This document shows positions 5,012-50,520 of a DNA stretch of 64,000 nucleotides, piece by piece. The stretch is from an uncultured Bacteroidota bacterium (GTDB lineage: Bacteria > Bacteroidota > Ignavibacteria > UBA10030 > UBA8401). The translations under genes and the position numbers were made by a program. The notes under the pieces are model-generated. The model did not search any database and had not been told where the DNA came from. It saw only the letters and a list, made by a program, of their open reading frames with translations. Position 1 is the stretch's first letter. The number at the start of each line of letters is the position of its first letter. The DNA is taken from contig OY970334.1 in assembly GCA_963717445.1 (NCBI GenBank), positions 901,798 to 965,797 on the forward strand. Direction: 5' to 3'.

Positions 5012-7123
5012 CTATTCCTCCACCCCTTTCGATTTCTCGTATTCCTCAATGATCTTCACAGCGACTTCGTGAGGAACTTCTTCGTAATGTGAGAACTTTT
5101 GCTTATGAATTCCCCGTCCTTGCGTCATTGAACGAAGCGTGGTGGAATACCGGTACAACTCTTTCAAGGGGACCAGCGCTTTGATGATCTGATGAGCATT
5201 GTCAGAATCCATCCCCAATATTTTTCCGCGCCGGCTCGACAAGTCCCCCATCACATCTCCCATGTGTTCTTCCGGAACCATCACCTCGACTTCATAGAGC
5301 GGCTCGAGCAAAATCGGCTTTGCTTCCTTGAAACCTTTTTTAAATGCCATCTTCCCAGCTATCTTGAAGGACATATCGTCGGAATCAACGTCATGATACG
5401 AACCGTAATGGAGTGTCGCTTTCACATCGACAACCTGATAGCCGGCGATGACTCCGCTCGTCAACGCCTCCACAATACCTTTTTCAACAGCCGGAACAAA
5501 TCTGCCGGGAACGACACCGCCGACAATTGCATCTTCAAATTCAAATCCGGTTCCGCGCTGGATCGGTTCAATTTTCAGATGGACGTGCCCGTATTGGCCG
5601 CGTCCGCCCGATTGCTTTTTGTGTTTATATTCGGCGTCGGCGACGACGCCCTTAATCGTTTCTTTGTAGGGTATGCGGGGCTCAACCACGTCGACATCCA
5701 CGCCGAATTTTTCTTTGAGACGTTTTATAATAATCGCAAGATGGAGTTCGCCCTGTCCCTGGACCACTGTCTGCTTCGTTTCGGGATCATAGTGAACGAT
5801 GAACGTGGGGTCTTCTTCGTGAAGCGAATGAAGACCGGAGCCGATTTTATCTTCTTCCCCTTTCGCCTTCGCCAGGATGGCGTTCGCGATAACCGGATCG
5901 GGAAAAACTATCGGTGGATAAAGAACAGGAAAGGTTTTAGCGCTCAATGTATTGTTGGTATGGGTATCTTTCAGCTTCACGACTGCCCCTAAATCCCCGG
6001 CGTTGATCTTTGCGACTTCTTTACGCTCACGGCCGTTCATGACAAAAATCTGGCCGAGCCTCTCGGACTTGCTGTTTGTCTCATTGAGTAAATCTATTCC
6101 TGCAGAAATGGAGCCGGTGATGACTTTGAAAAAGGAAAGCTCGCCGACGTGAGGCTCGGAGACGGTCTTGAAGACAAGCAATGACGGCGCTGCCGACGCA
6201 TCGATTTTCACTTCAATTTCCTTCTTGCTCGATGGTTCGATGCCATTACCATGACCGTGCTCGAGGGGTGACGGACAATACTTCACGATAAAATTCAGCG
6301 TATTCAACACGCCGATGTTAATCACCGGCGAGGCAGAAAAAATGGGAAATACTTTCCGCTCGACAATTCCCCGTTTCAACCCCACGCGAATATCTTCTTC
6401 CGAAAGGGTCCCATTCTCGAAGAATTTATTGAGCAGCATTTCATCGGACTCGGCGATTTTTTCTATCAACTCTTCGTGAAGGTGCGTGGCGCGCTCTTGC
6501 AATTCTGCAGGCACTGCCTCTTCGGTGAATTTTCCGTTCGTCGACGGTTCAAATTTCAACAGCTTCATCGAGAGAACGTCGACAACACCGGTGATGCCGG
6601 GCCCCGTACTCACGGGAAACGTTACAAGCACGGCGTCGTGAGAACATCGGTCTTTTATTGCGTTGACGGTGCGTTCGAAATCAATGTTATCGTGGTCGAC
6701 TTTTGTTATCACAAACAAGGACGGGAGAGAATACTCTTCAATATATTTCCAGACGATTTCCGTTCCGACTTCAACCCCCTCGAATGCCTTGACAAAAACG
6801 ATTGCCGCATCAGACACACGAAGCGCAGCTTTCACTTCGCCGGTGAAGTCCGTATATCCGGGAGTATCGAGAATATTCACTTTGGTTGCATCGAGATCGG
6901 TGACGAGCAGAGAGGTATTGATAGAAATGTGGCGTTCGATTTCGTCCTGATGGTAATCGGAAACCGACGACCCGTCGTCGACTTTTCCCTGGCGGTTCGT
7001 CGCCCCCGTTGCATAGAGTGCGGCTTCGGCGAAGGATGTTTTTCCCGAACCTCCATGGCCGATGAGTGCAACCGTTCTCACGGCATTTGAAGCGTATTCT
7101 TTTTGTAAAGGATGCTGGCTCAC
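5012..7123 (-). CDS. elongation factor G family translational GTPase (divergent paralog, 703 aa), GTG start
   Basis: The domain order is G domain, II, III, IV, V. G1 reads GHGGSGKTS (canonical AHIDAGKTT), G3 reads DTPGYTDF, and G4 reads TKVD (canonical NKxD). It starts at GTG 7123, with AAGGAG 8 nt upstream. Confidence 0.75.
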   Translation of the reverse strand: MSQHPLQKEYASNAVRTVALIGHGGSGKTSFAEAALYATGATNRQGKVDDGSSVSDYHQDEIERHISINTSLLVTDLDATKVNILDTPGYTDFTGEVKAALRVSDAAIVFVKAFEGVEVGTEIVWKYIEEYSLPSLFVITKVDHDNIDFERTVNAIKDRCSHDAVLVTFPVSTGPGITGVVDVLSMKLLKFEPSTNGKFTEEAVPAELQERATHLHEELIEKIAESDEMLLNKFFENGTLSEEDIRVGLKRGIVERKVFPIFSASPVINIGVLNTLNFIVKYCPSPLEHGHGNGIEPSSKKEIEVKIDASAAPSLLVFKTVSEPHVGELSFFKVITGSISAGIDLLNETNSKSERLGQIFVMNGRERKEVAKINAGDLGAVVKLKDTHTNNTLSAKTFPVLYPPIVFPDPVIANAILAKAKGEEDKIGSGLHSLHEEDPTFIVHYDPETKQTVVQGQGELHLAIIIKRLKEKFGVDVDVVEPRIPYKETIKGVVADAEYKHKKQSGGRGQYGHVHLKIEPIQRGTGFEFEDAIVGGVVPGRFVPAVEKGIVEALTSGVIAGYQVVDVKATLHYGSYHDVDSDDMSFKIAGKMAFKKGFKEAKPILLEPLYEVEVMVPEEHMGDVMGDLSSRRGKILGMDSDNAHQIIKALVPLKELYRYSTTLRSMTQGRGIHKQKFSHYEEVPHEVAVKIIEEYEKSKGVEE

Positions 7124-36921: not shown

Positions 36922-37735
36922 TTATTGTGCCGTTGTAAAAGAAAACGAATACGGCGACGATAGCACATTTCCATTTACATCTTTTATTGAAGTACTCATT
37001 GTAACCGTATACTTTGTTTCAGACGCCAGCATGGAACCCGAAGGGAGTGACCAGGACAATCCCCACGAACCGTAATAGATGTTTGCATTCCCTCCAACCG
37101 AAGGAGAGATACTAAATGAAGATTGGGCACTTGTTGTGTCTATCATGGAATTGAAACGAATTGTGATGTATGGATTTAACCGCAATATGGCAGTATCATT
37201 ATTAAACGGGTACGTATCAGTCACCCGAAAATAAGGCTCCGGAGTGAAAGTAAAAGTAAGCGTTTGCCCTAAGTAATCCCCGTAGACATCATGCACAAGA
37301 GAATCGATGGATATTGTATACGCCTGCCCTACCTTGTAGTACCGATTCATAAACTTGATACCCCACCGGAAAACGGGAATTAATAATTGGATCCGACAGA
37401 GCGACAATCCAGGTTGGTGTGAGAGAAAGGGGGAAAGCGAACGTTGTCCCTTCCACCGGTGTGGCTTTATTTGTGTCGATGTAAATAGGCTGGTTTGTGG
37501 GTGAAATAGTTATGCCGTCGATAACAGATCGGGTATCCATGAGAGTACTGAACCGAATCCTCACGGTATTATCCGACAACATAATGTTTGGCCCGACTGC
37601 GCCGGGCAGCGGATCGGTCCACACAACAGTGGGAGCCAAAGCATTGGCAGTACTAGCATCGGTAGGCACACCATTGCTAGAATCGCAGCCGGCGAGCAAA
37701 ACGACGATAAGCAGAGAGAACAGATATGGCCGCAT
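36922..37735 (-). pseudogene. tandem bacterial Ig-like domain lipoprotein, split by a frameshift near a C4/G4 homopolymer (about 37360-37440)
   Basis: ORF 37289..37756 has a lipobox (LLAGC) and the first Ig-like domain. ORF 36922..37407, in another frame, continues with ...YKVGQAYTISIDSLVHDVYGDYLGQTLTFTFT and a second domain. An RBS, AAGGAGG, sits 7 nt upstream of the ATG at 37735. Confidence 0.5.
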
Positions 37736-38059
37736 GAAAACCTCCTTAAAATTCAACCTTCTCCAAGAGCGATCAAAAAATAATCAACTTCACACATCCC
37801 ATTTTTTATTTCGCCGGGGACAGCGGTGCAATTCACCTCCACGCAAGTTGAGAGGTATTGTTGTAAGATTTTTGATATGGCAAAAATTCTGGGGGATGGA
37901 AAGGCCCGGCGCACGAAAAAATCGCAACGTGTGGTATGAAATTGAAATCAACATAGAACATCCGCTCGCACAGCTTCGCAAAAACCCTCAACCGACTTGT
38001 AGACACTGTTCCGCTTTCAGCGGAACGACCTCTCAAATGAATGTCCACACAATCCTTTG

Positions 38060-43234: not shown

Positions 43235-44018
43235 ATCATCCCGATTGTACAAATTGTGATTCAAGAGATGCTCGGTGTTGTTGAGCATGGATGGACGCTT
43301 ATATATAGAGACTTCTGAATTGTTTTAAAAGTATGGCTCACGCAATCCATAGCGATGGCTTCGCCAGACGTAAAGTGGCAAAATGATTTAACAACAGAGT
43401 CTTTGCGCCTTCGCGGCTTGGTGAGAGACAATTTTTCAGAAGCCTCATATATTTTTTAACACATACTTTTACTTAGTACCGCATTTCCTTTGCCAGCCCC
43501 TCTGAACAAAGACATAAATTTGATTCCATCATTATTTCGAAAGTGAGGGAAATTAATCAGCAACACGACGGTCTAATTTGTAAATGGCAAGGCGTAATCA
43601 TCGGAAACAGCGCAGTATAGTTCACCGGTAAGACTGGCAACGACTCACTTCTTCTAGAAGCTATCTCAAAAACGCTTGATTAAGTCCTTCTGAAGGAATA
43701 CTGACAGATCATTGTCATTCTGAACCCCGTCGCTTTTCAGACGGGGTGAAGAATCCATGACAATGACATCCCTTGACTCTACTAGGCTTCCATGTCATGG
43801 ATGCTTCTCCCGCCGCAAAACGGTGGGATCAGCATGACATTTACGGCTGCTTTCTGCATGAAAACCATTTTTGAGATGGCTTCTAGTTACGATCAACACT
43901 AGCGTGCCTGCTAACCAGTCGCTTCCGCCAAGAAACGGCGGGTCTCGAAACAAACGCTCGACAACCGATGAAACCGGCCGTCGACGATTTTGCTGCGCGA
44001 AACAACCGAAAAATAAAC

Positions 44019-44219
44019 ATGAAAACGTTTAGAAAATATGCTATTATGGTCTTCGTCGTTCTAGCTACTGTGCTCGGCACCGCGTGGTATTACGCTTCGC
44101 GCGAGCAGTTTATCCGAGTGTCATTGATTTGCTATGGTTTCTTGGTCGGCTACCTGGCAGCGTGGTTTCACATCGGACGCCGTCTAGAATTTAGAAAGTT
44201 TGGTAATGACTCATTTTGA
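44019..44219 (+). CDS. hypothetical small two-TM membrane protein (66 aa); its last codons lie inside the terminal repeat of element X
   Basis: The product is MKTFRKYAIMVFVVLATVLGTAWYYASREQFIRVSLICYGFLVGYLAAWFHIGRRLEFRKFGNDSF. The stop TGA at 44217-44219 falls inside the GGTAATGACTCATTTTGA terminal repeat. Confidence 0.3.
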   Translation: MKTFRKYAIMVFVVLATVLGTAWYYASREQFIRVSLICYGFLVGYLAAWFHIGRRLEFRKFGNDSF

Positions 44220-44754
44220 GAAAGAAAATCGAGTTTCTGAGGTTTAATGGAGTTAGTGTATGTTACTTTCTTTCCGAGGAAGTAACCAAAGAAATCTCTC
44301 GTCCGAAGGACCCCTTCGGGGAAATCGTAACACACGGATTCAATCCCAGCCGCACATGCCGTCAATTTCGGTGCAAGAGAGCGTCGAATATTTTGGTTTG
44401 ATGGTCAAGCGCCGAAATTGAAACCCTTCGATTGAATCCTTCCCGTCCGCAGACCTGACGATTTCGATTAATGTTGCAAAAGCTGCATGTGTTGTATCCT
44501 CGGAATCGGGGGCAGTGGGGGGTGGGGGCGATGCGCGCGTTGAGAAAACGGCTGGCATGTGCAGGTGGCAAGGGGGAGCCGTTTTCTCTTAGCTATGTGC
44601 AGGAAAGCATCGCCAGCATTCCGATTCCGAGAAGCTCTTCCCGCTTTCCAAAAATATGAAAGGCGGGATCCCGTACAGCGGGACTTTGCTTCTTTCTCTG
44701 GTACCAGAGAAAGAAGGATGACTTCAAGCCTATTATTCAAAATGAGTCACGACC
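44202..44754 (+). mobile_element. family-2 MITE-like structured element X (553 bp) with 18-bp terminal inverted repeats and an 8-bp target-site duplication
   Basis: The left terminus is GGTAATGACTCATTTTGA. The reverse complement of the right terminus is GGTCGTGACTCATTTTGA. It is flanked by the perfect direct repeat GAAAGTTT (44194-44201 and 44755-44762). It is about 85-90% identical to the reverse complement of 49894-50520. Confidence 0.65.
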
Positions 44755-44933
44755 GAAAGTTTTCAAGATTTTTATCGAATGATTCCGGAGCTTAGGAAAA
44801 CACGCCGCCGCTCTACATGATCCTCCGACTTCGCTTCCCGAAGGGATTCCTTGGGACATGATGACTATTTAATATTTTCTTTGAAAAAGCAAATTAGGAC
44901 ACTACCGAATATTTTAATTGATTAAGGTAATCC

Positions 44934-46283
44934 GTGAAAAGAATGTATCTTACTCTTTTGTTTATTTTAATAACCTCCGCTTCAACGCAAGCGCAATTCG
45001 ATCCGAAACAAATCGACAGCATTAAGATTGCTACAAATGAAGATTATCGATTGATGTTGAAACAGCTTAAGATCGATTCACTACGAGCAGGTCCATCCGG
45101 TAATCCAAAGGCACCCAATGCTGCAAATACCGATGAATCAAAAGCATCACCGTATACCTCTCTCCCCGACCCTCTACGATTAAATAACGGCGAGAAAGTA
45201 CGGGATGCAGAAACGTGGTGGAAAAAACGCCGCCCGGAAATAGTTGAATATTTTGATCGGGAGATCTATGGACGGGTTCCTAAGAATGTGCCGGAAGTTA
45301 CCTGGCACGTAGTGACGATAAAAAATGATACCGTAGAAAATATTCCGGTCATCGTTAAAAAATTATCGGGTCACGCCGACAACTCTTCGTTCCCCCCCAT
45401 CAGTGTCGATATACAATTAACGCTTACAATTCCGGAGAACGCTAAAACTCCGGTACCGGTTGTCATGGAATTCGGATTTGTTTTCCCTCCGGGGTTCAAA
45501 TTTCCCGAACCCCCTGCCGGCACGCCAAGGGAACCAAGCTGGCAATTCCAGGTGCTTTCAAAAGGGTGGGGCTACGCTATTCTTGTCCCAACAAGTTATC
45601 AAGCGGATTGGGGAGCCGGATTAATTAAAGGTATTATTGGTCTGACAAATAAAGGACAGCACAGAAAACCTGACGATTGGGGAGCACTAAGGGCATGGGC
45701 CTGGGGGGCAAGCCGTGCACTGGATTATTTCGAAACCGACAAATTCGTAAATGCAAAACAGGTGATCATTGAAGGTTTGTCGCGATATGGAAAAGCCGCA
45801 ATAGTGACAATGGCATACGATTCAAGGTTCGCATTGGCATTCATCGGATCTTCCGGAGCGGGCGGTGTTAAAATACTTCGGCGTGTCTACGGAGAGCAAG
45901 TAGAAAATCTGACTTCGTCCGGCGAGTATCACTGGTTCGCGGGTAACTTTTTAAAATATGCCGGTCATCTAAAAGTGAACGATCTACCGGTCGATGCGCA
46001 CGAGCTTGTCGCGTTGTGCGCTCCCCGTCCAGTATTTATTAGCTGCGGTTCTCCTGCGGTTGAAGGAGGATGGGTTGACGCAAAAGGCATGTTCCTGGGA
46101 GGCGCATACGCAAGTCCCGTCTATGAACTTCTGGGAAAAAAAGGATTAGGAACTTATGATTTTCCTCCAATTGAAACAGCCCTGATAAACGGTGAGATTG
46201 CATTTCGGCAGCATAAGGGGGGACATACAACCGGACCCAACTGGCCCTCTTTTTTAAAATATGCCGACAAGTACATTAAGTAA
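44934..46283 (+). CDS. glucuronoyl esterase (carbohydrate esterase family CE15)
   Basis: A signal peptide is followed by the GLSRYGK nucleophile motif (GCSRxG-like) and a conserved C-terminal HKGGHT region. Confidence 0.65.
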   Translation: MKRMYLTLLFILITSASTQAQFDPKQIDSIKIATNEDYRLMLKQLKIDSLRAGPSGNPKAPNAANTDESKASPYTSLPDPLRLNNGEKVRDAETWWKKRRPEIVEYFDREIYGRVPKNVPEVTWHVVTIKNDTVENIPVIVKKLSGHADNSSFPPISVDIQLTLTIPENAKTPVPVVMEFGFVFPPGFKFPEPPAGTPREPSWQFQVLSKGWGYAILVPTSYQADWGAGLIKGIIGLTNKGQHRKPDDWGALRAWAWGASRALDYFETDKFVNAKQVIIEGLSRYGKAAIVTMAYDSRFALAFIGSSGAGGVKILRRVYGEQVENLTSSGEYHWFAGNFLKYAGHLKVNDLPVDAHELVALCAPRPVFISCGSPAVEGGWVDAKGMFLGGAYASPVYELLGKKGLGTYDFPPIETALINGEIAFRQHKGGHTTGPNWPSFLKYADKYIK

Positions 46284-46364: not shown

Positions 46365-47393
46365 ATGAAAAAATTCTTTACACTCGCTGTCCTGCTTATC
46401 GGGACATGCTTCAGCGCAAATCTGCAGGCACAAACCTTTACGGTTCATAAATACAGCATCGATGGTGAAGGGGGTACGGATTATCTGACGGCTGAACCCG
46501 GAACGGGCCGTGTCTTTGTCTCGCGTGGCTTTCACGTTATGGTGCTCGACGCAAACACCGGCTCAGTGATTGGCGATATTCAGGACACACCGAATAATCA
46601 TGGAATCGCACTTGTTGCAAAATACAATCACGGGTTCATCACCAACCGTGGTGATTCCACAGTCACGATGTTCGATCTTACCACGCTTGCCATGATCAAA
46701 AAAATCAAGATTCCTGCCGGCGGACAAGATGGTATTATGTACGATGACTTCACTGACCGCATCATTCTGACCAATCATAGCAATCCTGGTACCGCTACTG
46801 CGATCGATCCAAACGCCGGAGTTATTACGGGAGAAGCCCAGCTTGAGGATAGTTCGCCCGAAGGCGCGGCAACGGATGGGAAAGGTAAACTTTTCATCAA
46901 CCTCGAAAGAAAGAACTCTATTCAGGTAGTCGACGCCAAAACATTGAAGGCTCTTGGTGTGTGGCCGTTAGATTCCTGCGAGGGACCGACCGGGATCGCT
47001 TACGACCGGACAACAGACAGAATCTTTTCCGGCTGCGGCAAAATTTCGGCAGTGGTGAACCCGGAAACCGGCAAGATTGTGGCGACGGTGCCAAACGGCG
47101 AAGGGGTTGACGCACTTGGATGGGATCCGTCCGAAAAGTTGATCTATATTCCAGCGGGCCGCGATAGCAGCGTAACAGTCGTGCACGAAGATTCACCCGA
47201 CCATTATACCGTCGTTGCTACGGTTACTACAATGACCGGTGCAAAAACAATTTCCGTCGATACGGTTAACCATGTGGCATATCTGTTCCAACCTCAATAC
47301 GGCCCCGCTCCGGCAGACGCACCGTTAGACCGAAACGGCCGCCGTCCACGTGGACCGGTCATAGGCGCATATCTCATTGTGATAAAACATTGA
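46365..47393 (+). CDS. YVTN-family beta-propeller repeat protein (secreted)
   Basis: A signal peptide is followed by repeated roughly 40-aa units with G..x..D / YVTN-like motifs. Confidence 0.55.
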   Translation: MKKFFTLAVLLIGTCFSANLQAQTFTVHKYSIDGEGGTDYLTAEPGTGRVFVSRGFHVMVLDANTGSVIGDIQDTPNNHGIALVAKYNHGFITNRGDSTVTMFDLTTLAMIKKIKIPAGGQDGIMYDDFTDRIILTNHSNPGTATAIDPNAGVITGEAQLEDSSPEGAATDGKGKLFINLERKNSIQVVDAKTLKALGVWPLDSCEGPTGIAYDRTTDRIFSGCGKISAVVNPETGKIVATVPNGEGVDALGWDPSEKLIYIPAGRDSSVTVVHEDSPDHYTVVATVTTMTGAKTISVDTVNHVAYLFQPQYGPAPADAPLDRNGRRPRGPVIGAYLIVIKH

Positions 47394-47523
47394 TACCAGA
47401 CCGAAAGCTGTGACGATTCATGCACTATGCAAATACAGATAGGTATCGTCGAACAACTGACATGCCCCATGTTTATATGCCAACGTTAAGTTACTAAATT
47501 TCCTCAGGCATTAACAGGTTCGG

Positions 47524-47800
47524 TCATAGGAAATTTTTGAAGGAACCAAGAAGTGACAATCTCTTGGCCGCCACTTCCTTCTTGCGGTCGATGACCTTTG
47601 CATATACCGCAGTCATAGCCAAATTTTTATGGCCAACAATTTACTGACGGTGTAAATATCCACACCGCCACATAGAGCGAGCGTAGCAAATGGATGACGG
47701 GCCTTAGGGAACAAAATCACCTTTTCGACTCCTGCTCTCTTTCGCCACGTTTTCAAAAACCTTGTCAACAGTGGATTGGCGAGGCAGCTTAACGATGATA
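47524..47800 (-). pseudogene. tyrosine recombinase (phage-integrase family) C-terminal remnant with at least 2 frameshifts
   Basis: Minus-strand translation reads ...KDIIVKLPRQSTVDKVFENV... then ...RAGVEKVILFPKARHPFATLALCGGVDIYTVSKLL in another frame, then GHKNLAMTAVYAKVIDRKK... in a third. Together these cover box II, RHxFAT...LLGH...Y, including the catalytic Tyr. The N-terminal part is absent and the remnant abuts the rbsK stop. Confidence 0.6.
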
Positions 47801-47803
47801 TCC

Positions 47804-48754
47804 TTAAACATTGACTGTTGTCGCATCGTTTCCCCTCATCTTACTCCGGAATGCATCGATTTCATTCCTAAAAGGCGCGGAAGGTTGCGCCCCCAATCTC
47901 GTGACGCAAATTGCCGCGGCTGCAGTCGCAAATCTTGCAGAGTCGGCAAGTGTCCACTTCTCAGAGAGTGCAACCGCCAGGCAGCCGCAATAAACGTCGC
48001 CGGCCGCCGTGGTATCCACTGCCTCAACATTGAAAGCCGGTATCCATTCGGATACACCGGAAGCTGCCACGTAGGAACCTTGTGCCCCCAACGTTATGAT
48101 AACTGTTTCACTTCCGAGCCTTAACAGCTCCTTCGCGGCAAGTTCAACGGATTCCCTCCCGGCAACGCTAATACCGGACAGCATTCCCGCCTCGATTTCA
48201 TTCACCACCAAAATCGATGCTTTCCTGAGATACGATTTGTCAAACTCTCTCGCCGGTGCGAAATTCCACAGAACTCTCGTCTTGTGTCTGCTGCAAACGT
48301 CAAGAATATATTTCAAAGTCTCAGGCAGGATCTCAAACTGGAGAACCACCATCGCGGCTTCTCCGATCAACGTCTCGGCTCTATCTATGTGTTGAGCTTT
48401 AAGCTTGTAGTTCGCGCCAGGCGCGACGGAAAGGTAGTTGGCACCCCGCTCTCCGATCATCACGAGGGCTTTTCCGCATGAAATGCCTTTCTCTTCAAAG
48501 ACACAATCAGTGTTGATCCCTTCATTCACAAAATGTTCCACCATCCGGTGCGAGCTATCATCGTCGCCGACACAATTCACGAAGCAGACATCGCCACCGG
48601 CTCTCGCGGCTCCGACCGCCTGATTGGCACCTTTTCCTCCGAAGGTCTCCATGAAGACCGCATCCGTGATCGTCTCGCCCACGCCGGGGAGCCTGGCCAT
48701 CTTCATGATATAGTCAACACTCGAGCTTCCGATAACAACAATAGGTTTTTTCAT
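47804..48754 (-). CDS. rbsK: ribokinase (PfkB family)
   Basis: GSSSVDY, GGKGANQAVA and the C-terminal TTAAGD...GA motifs are present. Confidence 0.8.
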   Translation of the reverse strand: MKKPIVVIGSSSVDYIMKMARLPGVGETITDAVFMETFGGKGANQAVGAARAGGDVCFVNCVGDDDSSHRMVEHFVNEGINTDCVFEEKGISCGKALVMIGERGANYLSVAPGANYKLKAQHIDRAETLIGEAAMVVLQFEILPETLKYILDVCSRHKTRVLWNFAPAREFDKSYLRKASILVVNEIEAGMLSGISVAGRESVELAAKELLRLGSETVIITLGAQGSYVAASGVSEWIPAFNVEAVDTTAAGDVYCGCLAVALSEKWTLADSARFATAAAAICVTRLGAQPSAPFRNEIDAFRSKMRGNDATTVNV

Positions 48755-48873
48755 AATTCGAAATGATTGAAAATTAGTATCACGCGAAGACGCAAAGCCG
48801 CGGCTTGACGACTCTGCCTAAGATATTTTTTTTGTTTTCTCAATAGTTCTATTCGTCAATCTCGTATTGACGA

Positions 48874-49875
48874 TCAGAGTTTTGCAGCGACGATAAGGCC
48901 CAGACCAATGATGAACGAGATGAACATGACTGCTAGATAACGTGTGATCGAAGAAGGGGCGCCCTTAAACTCTTTGAACACAAAGACACCCCATGCCGCC
49001 CCAATCATGGTGGACCCCTGCCCTAACCCATAAGAGATCGCAGGGCCGGCCTTGTCTGAAGCTATCAGGTTAAACAGAAGACCGGTATTGAAAATGAGAC
49101 CTCCGGCAAGACCTATCAAGTGCCGTTTCAGCGTCCCGTTAGCAAAATATTCTGAGTAAGTCGATTTATTTCCGTCCACAGGTTTGTACATGAAGTACGT
49201 ATTCCAAACAAAATTCGAAAGAAAAACGCCGATGGAAAAAATGAGCACGGCTGAATAAGGGGTGAGTTTCCCAGCCTCCGGTGTTACAAAATTCAGCGTC
49301 ATGCTGTCGGCAACGAACCTGTAAAAAAATCCCATGATGATTCCGGCAAAGACCGACAAGACAATGCCTTTGGTCGGAGAAGAGCCTCTCGATCCGGCAA
49401 CTTTCGAAGCGGCGACAGCGTTTACTGCCATTGCTATTACTACGAGCAATACTCCGATAAACAGCAGGTGCGGATTTCCTTCCGGTTGTTTGATGTAGTT
49501 CACCACAACGCCAATCACGAGCGCTAATCCAACGCCGATGGGAAAAGCAATTGATAATCCAGCCACCGATATCGCCGCAACGATGAGGAGGTTGGAAAGA
49601 TTAAAGACAATGCCTCCGATGACGGCCGAGAGGAGTGAACCGGAATCGGCCTGAATAAGATCAGCCAAGAAGCTTCTGCCATTAGAGCCCGTGCTTCCCA
49701 TCGTCAGCCCGAAGAGAAGCGCCGCAATAATCAACCCAAGAGCGTAGTCCCAATAAAACAGCGGAAATGGCCAGTCCTTTGTCGAAATCTTTGAAGTGTT
49801 TGCCCATGATCCCCAACAGAGCATTGTCACAACACAAAATGCAACGGCAACAGAATATTCATTTATGATGTACAT
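48874..49875 (-). CDS. GRP-family (glucose/ribose uptake, DMT superfamily) sugar transporter
   Basis: It has 10 TM helices and duplicated EamA-like halves. It is adjacent to and co-oriented with rbsK. The ATG giving MYIINEYSV was chosen over the TTG start of the listed ORF. Confidence 0.6.
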   Translation of the reverse strand: MYIINEYSVAVAFCVVTMLCWGSWANTSKISTKDWPFPLFYWDYALGLIIAALLFGLTMGSTGSNGRSFLADLIQADSGSLLSAVIGGIVFNLSNLLIVAAISVAGLSIAFPIGVGLALVIGVVVNYIKQPEGNPHLLFIGVLLVVIAMAVNAVAASKVAGSRGSSPTKGIVLSVFAGIIMGFFYRFVADSMTLNFVTPEAGKLTPYSAVLIFSIGVFLSNFVWNTYFMYKPVDGNKSTYSEYFANGTLKRHLIGLAGGLIFNTGLLFNLIASDKAGPAISYGLGQGSTMIGAAWGVFVFKEFKGAPSSITRYLAVMFISFIIGLGLIVAAKL

Positions 49876-49893
49876 GTTCAATGCCTTTCATTG

Positions 49894-50520
49894 GGTAGTG
49901 ACTCATTTTAAATGATAGTCTCGAAGTTACTCTTCTTTCTCTGGCGCCAGAGAAAGAAGCAAAGAGAGCTTCTCAGAATCGGAATGCTGGCGATGCTTTC
50001 CCACACACAGCCGGGAGAAAACTGCTCCCGCTTGCCACCTGGACATGCCAGCCGTTTTCTCAACGCACGCATCGCCCCCCCACCCCCACTGTCGCCGATT
50101 CCGAGGATACAACACATGCAGCTTTTGCAACAATAATCGAAATCGTCAGGTCGGCGGGTGGGAAGGATTCAATCGAAGGGTTTTCCCGAAAGGGATCCCT
50201 TGGGGACAATTTCGGCGCTTGACCATCAAACCACAATATTCGACGCTCTCTTGCGCCGAAATTGACGGCATGTGCGGCTGGGATTGAATCCGTGTGTTAC
50301 GATTTCCCCAAAGGGGTCCTTCGGACGAGAGATTTCTCCCGCTTTAAAAACAAAAAAGGCGGGATGCCGTAAAGCGGCATTTGGTTACTTTTCCCGCTTC
50401 TATTAAAAATTTTAAAGAGCGGGATCCCGTACAGCGGGACTTCCTCGGAAAGAAAGTAACATACACTAACTCCATTAGACCTCAGACGCTCGTTTTTCTT
50501 TCTCAAAATGAGTTGCTACC
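49894..50520 (-). mobile_element. family-2 MITE-like structured element Y (627 bp), inverted copy of X
   Basis: The left terminus is GGTAGTGACTCATTTTA. The reverse complement of the right terminus is GGTAGCAACTCATTTTGA. The right end lies 3 nt from the GH9 stop (50524). The left end lies 19 nt from the transporter start. Confidence 0.6.

Follow-up and report, generated by a model that had tools for sequence, protein, structure and literature searches.

The minus-strand segment at 47524-47814 of the window, by which we mean the whole stretch of 64,000 nucleotides analysed here, is most probably the non-functional last quarter of a Bacteroidota-type integrase. It would be the scar of a lost element lying between resident genes, with the inverted repeats to either side being unrelated insertions of a MITE-like element. 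The parts of the remnant are as follows, in the order in which they are read.

47524-47814 (minus): whole integrase remnant, about 87 C-terminal residues and the stop codon TGA (47526-47524) of a tyrosine recombinase of about 350-370 aa
47758-47802 (minus): Segment A, DIIVKLPRQSTVDKV, codon starts at 47898-3n; the residues SMFK upstream extend the start to 47814
47755-47759 (minus): frameshift 1, a T5 run, GGTTTTTG, with one T too many compared with the D-K-V-L-K-T-W reading of relatives
47634-47759 (minus): Segment B, FLKTWRKRAGVEKVILFPKARHPFATLALCGGVDIYTVSKLL, codon starts at 47900-3n; the box II Arg codon is CGT at 47699-47697
47706-47708 (minus): Pro codon CCT in place of the HxxR His, where relatives read ..SFHKARH..; a single change of CAT to CCT would suffice
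47633-47634 (minus): frameshift 2, TTGGCCAT in place of TTGGGCCAT (L-G-H), one G having been lost from a G run, TTGG(G)CCAT
47524-47634 (minus): Segment C, GHKNLAMTAVYAKVIDRKKEVAAKRLSLLGSFKNFL followed by the stop codon, with the conserved His (CAT, 47631-47629) and the nucleophile Tyr (TAT, 47604-47602)

A profile HMM of 374 states was derived from 101 full-length relatives, and every stop-to-stop piece in the six frames of the 64-kb window was compared with it without any stitching of frames. The remnant was the sole matching locus and covers HMM positions ~275-361 of 374. Segments B and C were each recovered as unstitched pieces (HMM 286-332, E = 5e-19 and HMM 332-361, E = 9e-10, respectively). 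Segment A is collinear with them (HMM 275-299) and weak on its own (E = 2.3); it aligns to the 'VF.LPRRSTIDKA' stretch of the full-length relatives. A tblastn search with the same 101 proteins agrees. When stitched, the peptide matches Pfam PF00589 with an E-value of 2.8e-10 (40.7 bits, gathering cut-off 27.1, profile positions 112-168 of 172). When phmmer was run exhaustively against 1.84 billion representatives, 6428 matches were obtained at E<=1e-3, of which 1027 were at <=1e-10 and the best at 2.6e-20, and the alignments fall on residues ~264-350 of proteins of 345-370 aa. The closest full-length relatives share 57-63% identity with the stub over their last ~85 residues. No sequence more than 65% identical to the remnant was present in the protein collections searched, and the parent element was not found. 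The original prediction had recognised here, on the minus strand, the box-II RHxFAT...LLGH...Y region of a tyrosine recombinase, and the peptides that it quoted are indeed present where it placed them. The PF00589 comparison that it proposed is significant for the stitched peptide, and Segments B and C are significant unstitched against the HMM of full-length relatives. It had also allowed that the similarity might be limited to the short RHxFAT string; the homology extends over ~87 residues. Judged by this homology, the remnant is the C-terminal ~25% of a tyrosine recombinase and the match is not due to chance.

The rest of the protein is missing. HMM positions 1-274, which hold both DNA-binding domains and the box I Arg and Lys, had no profile match anywhere in the 64-kb window, and the first ~275 integrase residues were likewise not found when the 101 full-length proteins were compared with the window by tblastn. 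A possible displaced N-terminal part near tRNA-Val (37641-37886, tblastn E = 0.024) was rejected as noise, the profile search having given no match there. A 5′ truncation had been anticipated, with two thirds of the protein thought to be lost; the loss itself is borne out, but it amounts to about three quarters. The reading frames also differ from the first description, in which the peptides were spread across three frames. Frameshifts 1 and 2 cancel, so that Segments A and C are in the same frame, and the remnant consists of three collinear segments in two reading frames. Alignment to relatives indicates that box II retains the Arg, the second His and the Tyr, and that the first His of HxxR is Pro. 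The remnant has neither the box I Arg and Lys, which belong to the first half of the catalytic domain, nor either of the DNA-binding domains, and two frameshifts and the 5′ truncation mean that it is not continuous as an open reading frame. Since the DNA-binding domains and the box I half are absent, the frame is broken twice and Pro stands for the HxxR His, the stub is predicted to be unable to recombine DNA and to have no recombinase function.

The type of recombinase is indicated by the full-length relatives. Six of the seven best relatives tested (P0019, P0020, P0021, P0025, P0026 and P0030) have the architecture Arm-DNA-bind_5, Phage_int_SAM_5 and Phage_integrase, and the seventh, P0029, has the latter two domains without an arm-domain match. 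One relative lies at the edge of a typical integrative element, adjoining mnmE, together with HTH_17, PriCT_2, DUF3987 and restriction-modification genes, and another (P0003) lies in a prophage-like region. Like the Bacteroidota-type integrases (PF17293, PF13102 and PF00589), which occur on integrative or mobilisable elements and on temperate phages of Bacteroidota, the stub carries the motifs ARH.FATL, DIYTVSKLLGH and IYAKV. It differs from them in being only ~25% of the protein, in its two frameshifts and in having Pro for the HxxR His; moreover, unlike the elements that carry such integrases, the stub locus yielded no excisionase, att sites or cargo. Box II is also matched by Xer and integron recombinases with structures (XerC-like 4a8e, IntI4 2a3v, XerA 5hxy and XerD 1a0p; E = 1.7e-8 to 1e-4), and the NCBIfam models for XerA, XerC, XerD and IntI match the same 60 residues at 22-46 bits. 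These scores are far under the family cut-offs of 220-435 bits and the likeness is that of the shared catalytic fold only; the stub is therefore not a Xer or integron integrase. In phage databases the matches to the stub reach only 45-57% identity and the PHROGs label is a generic 'integrase', which fits a prophage or another integrative element alike.

A word-indexed search had returned 18 short proteins (46-147 aa) that could have represented a stand-alone C-terminal mini-integrase family. This was discarded, as the exhaustive search gives mostly full-length relatives of 340-390 aa. The protein P0005 comes from a full-length integrase gene that errors have broken up, the arm domain of which was called separately, and the adjacent mnmE is split too. 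Genes split by frameshifts were also observed in related long contigs, namely rbsK in L004 (10001-10926), mnmE and integrase in L012 (3716-5109) and the transporter in L014 (3212-4307). These splits are probably long-read homopolymer errors, and many of the 'short integrase' proteins in databases are likely to be products of such split gene calls.

The remnant lies between two genes that point towards each other, and the features around it are listed below.

46365-47393 (plus): YVTN/YncE-family beta-propeller gene, stop codon at 47391-47393; a conserved gene, not cargo
47412-47845: lineage-specific junction of 434 nt, delimited by the homology limits in relatives; the remnant plus 112 nt past the remnant stop
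47804-47845 (minus): last 13 codons of rbsK and its stop (SKMRGNDATTVNV and stop), in which junction and remnant DNA is read in a third frame
47804-48754 (minus): rbsK (ribokinase), TIGR02152 at 313.7 bits against a cut-off of 299.65

Homologues of the YVTN gene are numerous (6139 at E<=1e-20), with more than 100 at 75-100% identity among the matches listed. Its counterparts in L015 and L016 (both 92% amino-acid identity) and in L017 (87%) retain nucleotide homology to the window as far as 47411 and 47405, respectively, so that 18 and 12 nt beyond the stop codon are still shared, and unrelated genes follow. A profile search of L015-L017 found no integrase of the remnant's family downstream of YVTN. 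Eighty metagenome loci carrying YVTN relatives (650 kb) contained no rbsK, no adjacent integrase and no match to the junction sequence; an integrase of the remnant's family was present in a single distant locus, 4 kb off.

On the other side, a genome scan with RbsK led to L003 (a Chitinophagaceae MAG) and L004 (a Bacteroidetes MAG), both of them close relatives. An exact-sequence look-up of the window's RbsK returned no record. GH9, the sugar transporter and rbsK are contiguous in L003, L004 and L101. The nucleotide homology of these three to the window runs from 52390 to 50518 and then from 49893 to 47846, skipping 49894-50517, and that of L099 and L100 stops at 47840 and 47847. The gene after rbsK differs in each relative (a T9SS protein, a radical-SAM enzyme, GH92 and others), and a profile search of the five relatives found no integrase of the remnant's family downstream of rbsK.

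The homology limits are thus closely grouped, at 47405-47411 on the YVTN side (L015, L016, L017) and at 47840-47849 on the rbsK side (L003, L004, L099, L100, L101). The junction between them is the sole DNA between YVTN and rbsK without a counterpart in relatives, and the remnant makes up most of it. A comparison with orthologous regions had been suggested as a way of finding an intact integrase at this position, and none sits there in the relatives examined. Gene order is fluid around both YVTN and rbsK in this clade, with neighbourhoods that differ in every relative, and synteny therefore delimits only the 434-nt junction and no island. As far as sequence comparison can tell, only 47412-47845 is foreign or lineage-specific, and the flanking YVTN gene and GH9-transporter-rbsK block are resident chromosomal genes and not cargo.

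The junction also reaches into rbsK. RbsK proteins of relatives are 305-312 aa long and can be aligned only to residue ~303-306 of the 316 residues found here. As the tail of rbsK starts exactly where homology ends, it is encoded by junction DNA. The remnant had been described as running directly into the rbsK stop codon; the contact is real, but the two do not merely abut, as the remnant overlaps the stop codon (47804-47806).

Upstream of YVTN, both the window (44934-46283) and L015 (191-2293) carry a CE15 glucuronoyl-esterase gene. The two CE15 proteins share ~32% identity over 158 residues and are 449 aa and 700 aa long, respectively, the latter with fn3 and a T9SS tail. This adjacency represents either a recurring functional pairing or a replacement.

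Outside these genes lie the two arms of the inverted repeat.

44202-44754 (plus): left arm, 553 bp, non-coding; TIRs GGTAATGACTCATTTTGA and GGTCGTGACTCATTTTGA, TSD GAAAGTTT
49894-50520 (minus): right arm, 627 bp, in the opposite orientation, inserted 3 nt past the GH9 stop codon

The arms are 85-98% identical and inverted, and are the sole copies within the window. Both have TIRs of 18 nt (GGTARYRACTCATTTTRA), 16/18 of which are identical. The left arm is bracketed by a perfect 8-bp TSD (44194-44201 and 44755-44762). The TSD of the right arm reads CAAT(A)GAAA at 50529-50521 against CAATGAAA at 49893-49886, matching at 8/9 positions, and L003, L004 and L101 show an empty site at the position of the right arm. 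The right copy has ~100 nt extra (about 50338-50438) that contain two copies of the hairpin motif GGCGGGATCCCGTACAGCGGGAC. Both copies have the same orientation relative to the operon that each precedes, i.e. CE15-YVTN and transporter-rbsK. No Pfam match was found for the four longest ORFs of the left arm (69-90 aa), and none of the three comparable ORFs wholly inside the right arm scored above a Pfam cut-off. The arms resemble MITEs in their short size, TIRs and 8-bp TSDs, in having no Pfam-scoring ORF among the seven tested and, for the right arm, in the empty site. They differ from MITEs in that two full copies are seen, in this lineage only, and that no autonomous parent IS was found. Nor do they have the make-up of a composite transposon, as the longest arm ORFs are without a significant family match and each arm has its own TSD. 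Because each arm has its own TIRs and its own TSD, and because there is an empty site for the right arm, the arms are best read as two copies, independently inserted, of a MITE-like element that had not been assigned before, and not as the boundaries of one element. The matched TSDs further imply that the segment between the arms was not left inverted.

The truncation and both frameshifts are common to four assemblies of the lineage (the window, L001, L014 and L098). L001 (GCA_049589135.1) is 100% identical to the window across the remnant, L014 has a single substitution and a single 3-nt indel over 481 nt, and L098 (GCA_052916205.1), which is 96% identical overall, has the same truncation and the same frameshifts. 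Between the window and L098, the tract at 47325-47772 (448 nt) contains zero substitutions and one in-frame 3-nt indel, compared with a dS of 0.08 for rbsK and 0.11 for YVTN and a dN of ~0.012 in these flanks. Divergence between strains is thus ~10x lower in the junction tract than at synonymous sites of the genes beside it. Comparison of the window with L014 gives a dS of 0.16 for YVTN and of 0.0045 for rbsK. This mosaic implies that the population is recombining, and points to frequent homologous recombination within it. The low divergence is likely to mean that the junction is a young, non-replaceable structural variant, a reading that we prefer over selection. Donor strains would be without the junction, so that recombination would renew the flanks and not the junction itself, the coalescence of which would be younger. 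The low-diversity tract is as such a small population-genetic curiosity.

The original prediction took the remnant as direct evidence of a decayed mobile cassette at 44-50 kb. In this reading the whole segment (CE15, YVTN, remnant, rbsK and transporter) arrived in one piece as an integrative or mobile element, with the integrase remnant lying within inverted repeats of ~0.55-0.63 kb and with CE15 and YVTN, which are not beside rbsK in relatives, brought in as part of it. We consider this very unlikely. The transporter and rbsK (47846-49893) are ancestral, being syntenic in L003, L004 and L101 with GH9, which lies outside the segment, and the right arm is an insertion into this conserved GH9-transporter-rbsK block. 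YVTN is itself highly conserved. Moreover, an 8-bp TSD of its own for each arm fits independent insertions and not a composite unit, and the sizeable ORFs of both arms are without a match above a Pfam cut-off. There are no att-type direct repeats around the cassette, the direct repeats found being short two-copy matches at chance level, no tRNA target (the nearest tRNAs are at 38.1-38.5 kb, 9 kb away) and no other mobile-element gene was found within it. With separate MITE insertions and conserved synteny, there is no basis for regarding 44-50 kb as one decayed element. In Bacteroidota, DNA inversions are carried out by tyrosine recombinases, and a tyrosine-recombinase gene within long inverted repeats could also be the remains of a site-specific invertase, of the shufflon or phase-variation kind, which once flipped the 5.1-kb segment between the repeats. 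This appears highly improbable. The repeats are MITE copies, and their matched TSDs mean that the present orientation is the one that held when both were inserted. The orientation of GH9-transporter-rbsK is the same as in relatives, and L001 and L014 are collinear with the window. The closest full-length relatives, furthermore, possess an arm-binding domain, and their contexts are those of integrative elements or prophage-like regions.

Two further explanations concern the state of the stub itself. An intact gene, the frameshifts of which are only homopolymer errors of sequencing or assembly, might be suggested by the position of both frameshifts in homopolymer runs, and by the split genes in some related long-read contigs. 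Such an artefact is, however, almost certainly not the explanation, as both indels recur in four assemblies that come from different projects, the short, fragmented MAG contigs L001 and L098 among them. Indel errors would in any case not account for the 5′ truncation, rbsK being located where the N-terminal 275 residues would be. A true stub could instead have been co-opted, whether as the 3′ end and stop of rbsK, as a 3′-UTR or terminator of YVTN and rbsK, which are convergent, as a small RNA or as a small peptide (the 51-aa ORF at 47613-47768). The freedom of 47325-47772 from substitutions between the window and L098, at flank dS values of 0.08-0.11 and dN of ~0.012, would agree with this, as would the in-frame 3-nt indel being the sole length change in the remnant and the termination of rbsK within the stub. 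We nonetheless hold co-option to be unlikely. The junction has no Rfam match at E<=1, its folding z-scores are only about -1.8 and it contains no terminator-like site. The tract is less diverged than even the non-synonymous sites of the flanks, which recent shared ancestry fits better than constraint does; in a mosaic population, recombination cannot replace DNA that is absent from the donors, and the comparison rests on three sequences. The stronger proposal, that the recombinase pseudogene has been domesticated as a regulatory or coding element, would account for 47325-47772 being invariant against a synonymous difference of 8-16% in the flanks, and we regard it as quite improbable too.

The preferred reading is therefore that of a scar. 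The original prediction of a frameshifted, 5′-truncated box II remnant is upheld, and remnants of this kind are footprints of integrative elements. One that carried this integrase would once have been present at the YVTN/rbsK boundary, and a deletion or rearrangement would then have removed ~800 bp from the 5′ part of the integrase gene along with the rest of the element. The same event may have fused the stub to the 3′ end of rbsK, which would thereby have gained its last 13 codons and stop. We infer this order, insertion and then deletion, from the present arrangement; no relative with an intact element at the YVTN/rbsK site was found among those examined.

Integrase pseudogenes that mark degraded genomic islands or prophages are a general and well-known phenomenon, and the locus is an ordinary, routine footprint of a lost element. 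As in known scars, a truncated, frameshifted int lies at a synteny breakpoint with unrelated resident genes on either side. It differs from them in that there is no tRNA or att remnant and there are no residual island genes, and in that the stub provides rbsK with its stop codon. For annotation, the stub should be recorded as a pseudogene fragment and the inverted repeats as two MITE insertions; CE15, YVTN, rbsK and the transporter should not be called island cargo. The locus also serves as a worked example of how an integrase scar marks a synteny breakpoint without implicating its neighbours, and of how such a scar can give an adjacent gene a new C-terminal tail and stop codon.

Some smaller observations were made on the repeats in and around this region. 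The left MITE has taken the place of the last codons of an 83-aa ORF at 43968-44219; removal of the element and one copy of the TSD restores an ORF of 88 aa, and the ORF has no Pfam match. In L017, a stretch of ~80 nt (6439-6516) can be matched to the MITE in two separate places, one being the palindrome CTTCTTTCT..AGAAAGAAG and the other lying close to the 5′ end; it may represent a much-reduced form of the element in a related genome. Finally, a repeat of ~140 nt at 43742-43885, in a hairpin-rich region of the window (43654-43886), has copies of 78-83% identity in unrelated contexts in L003 (1665-1807), L020 (13317-13452) and L021 (10292-10427), and part of it matches L030 and L080 too. This repeat may be another small mobile or structured element that is distributed across the clade.
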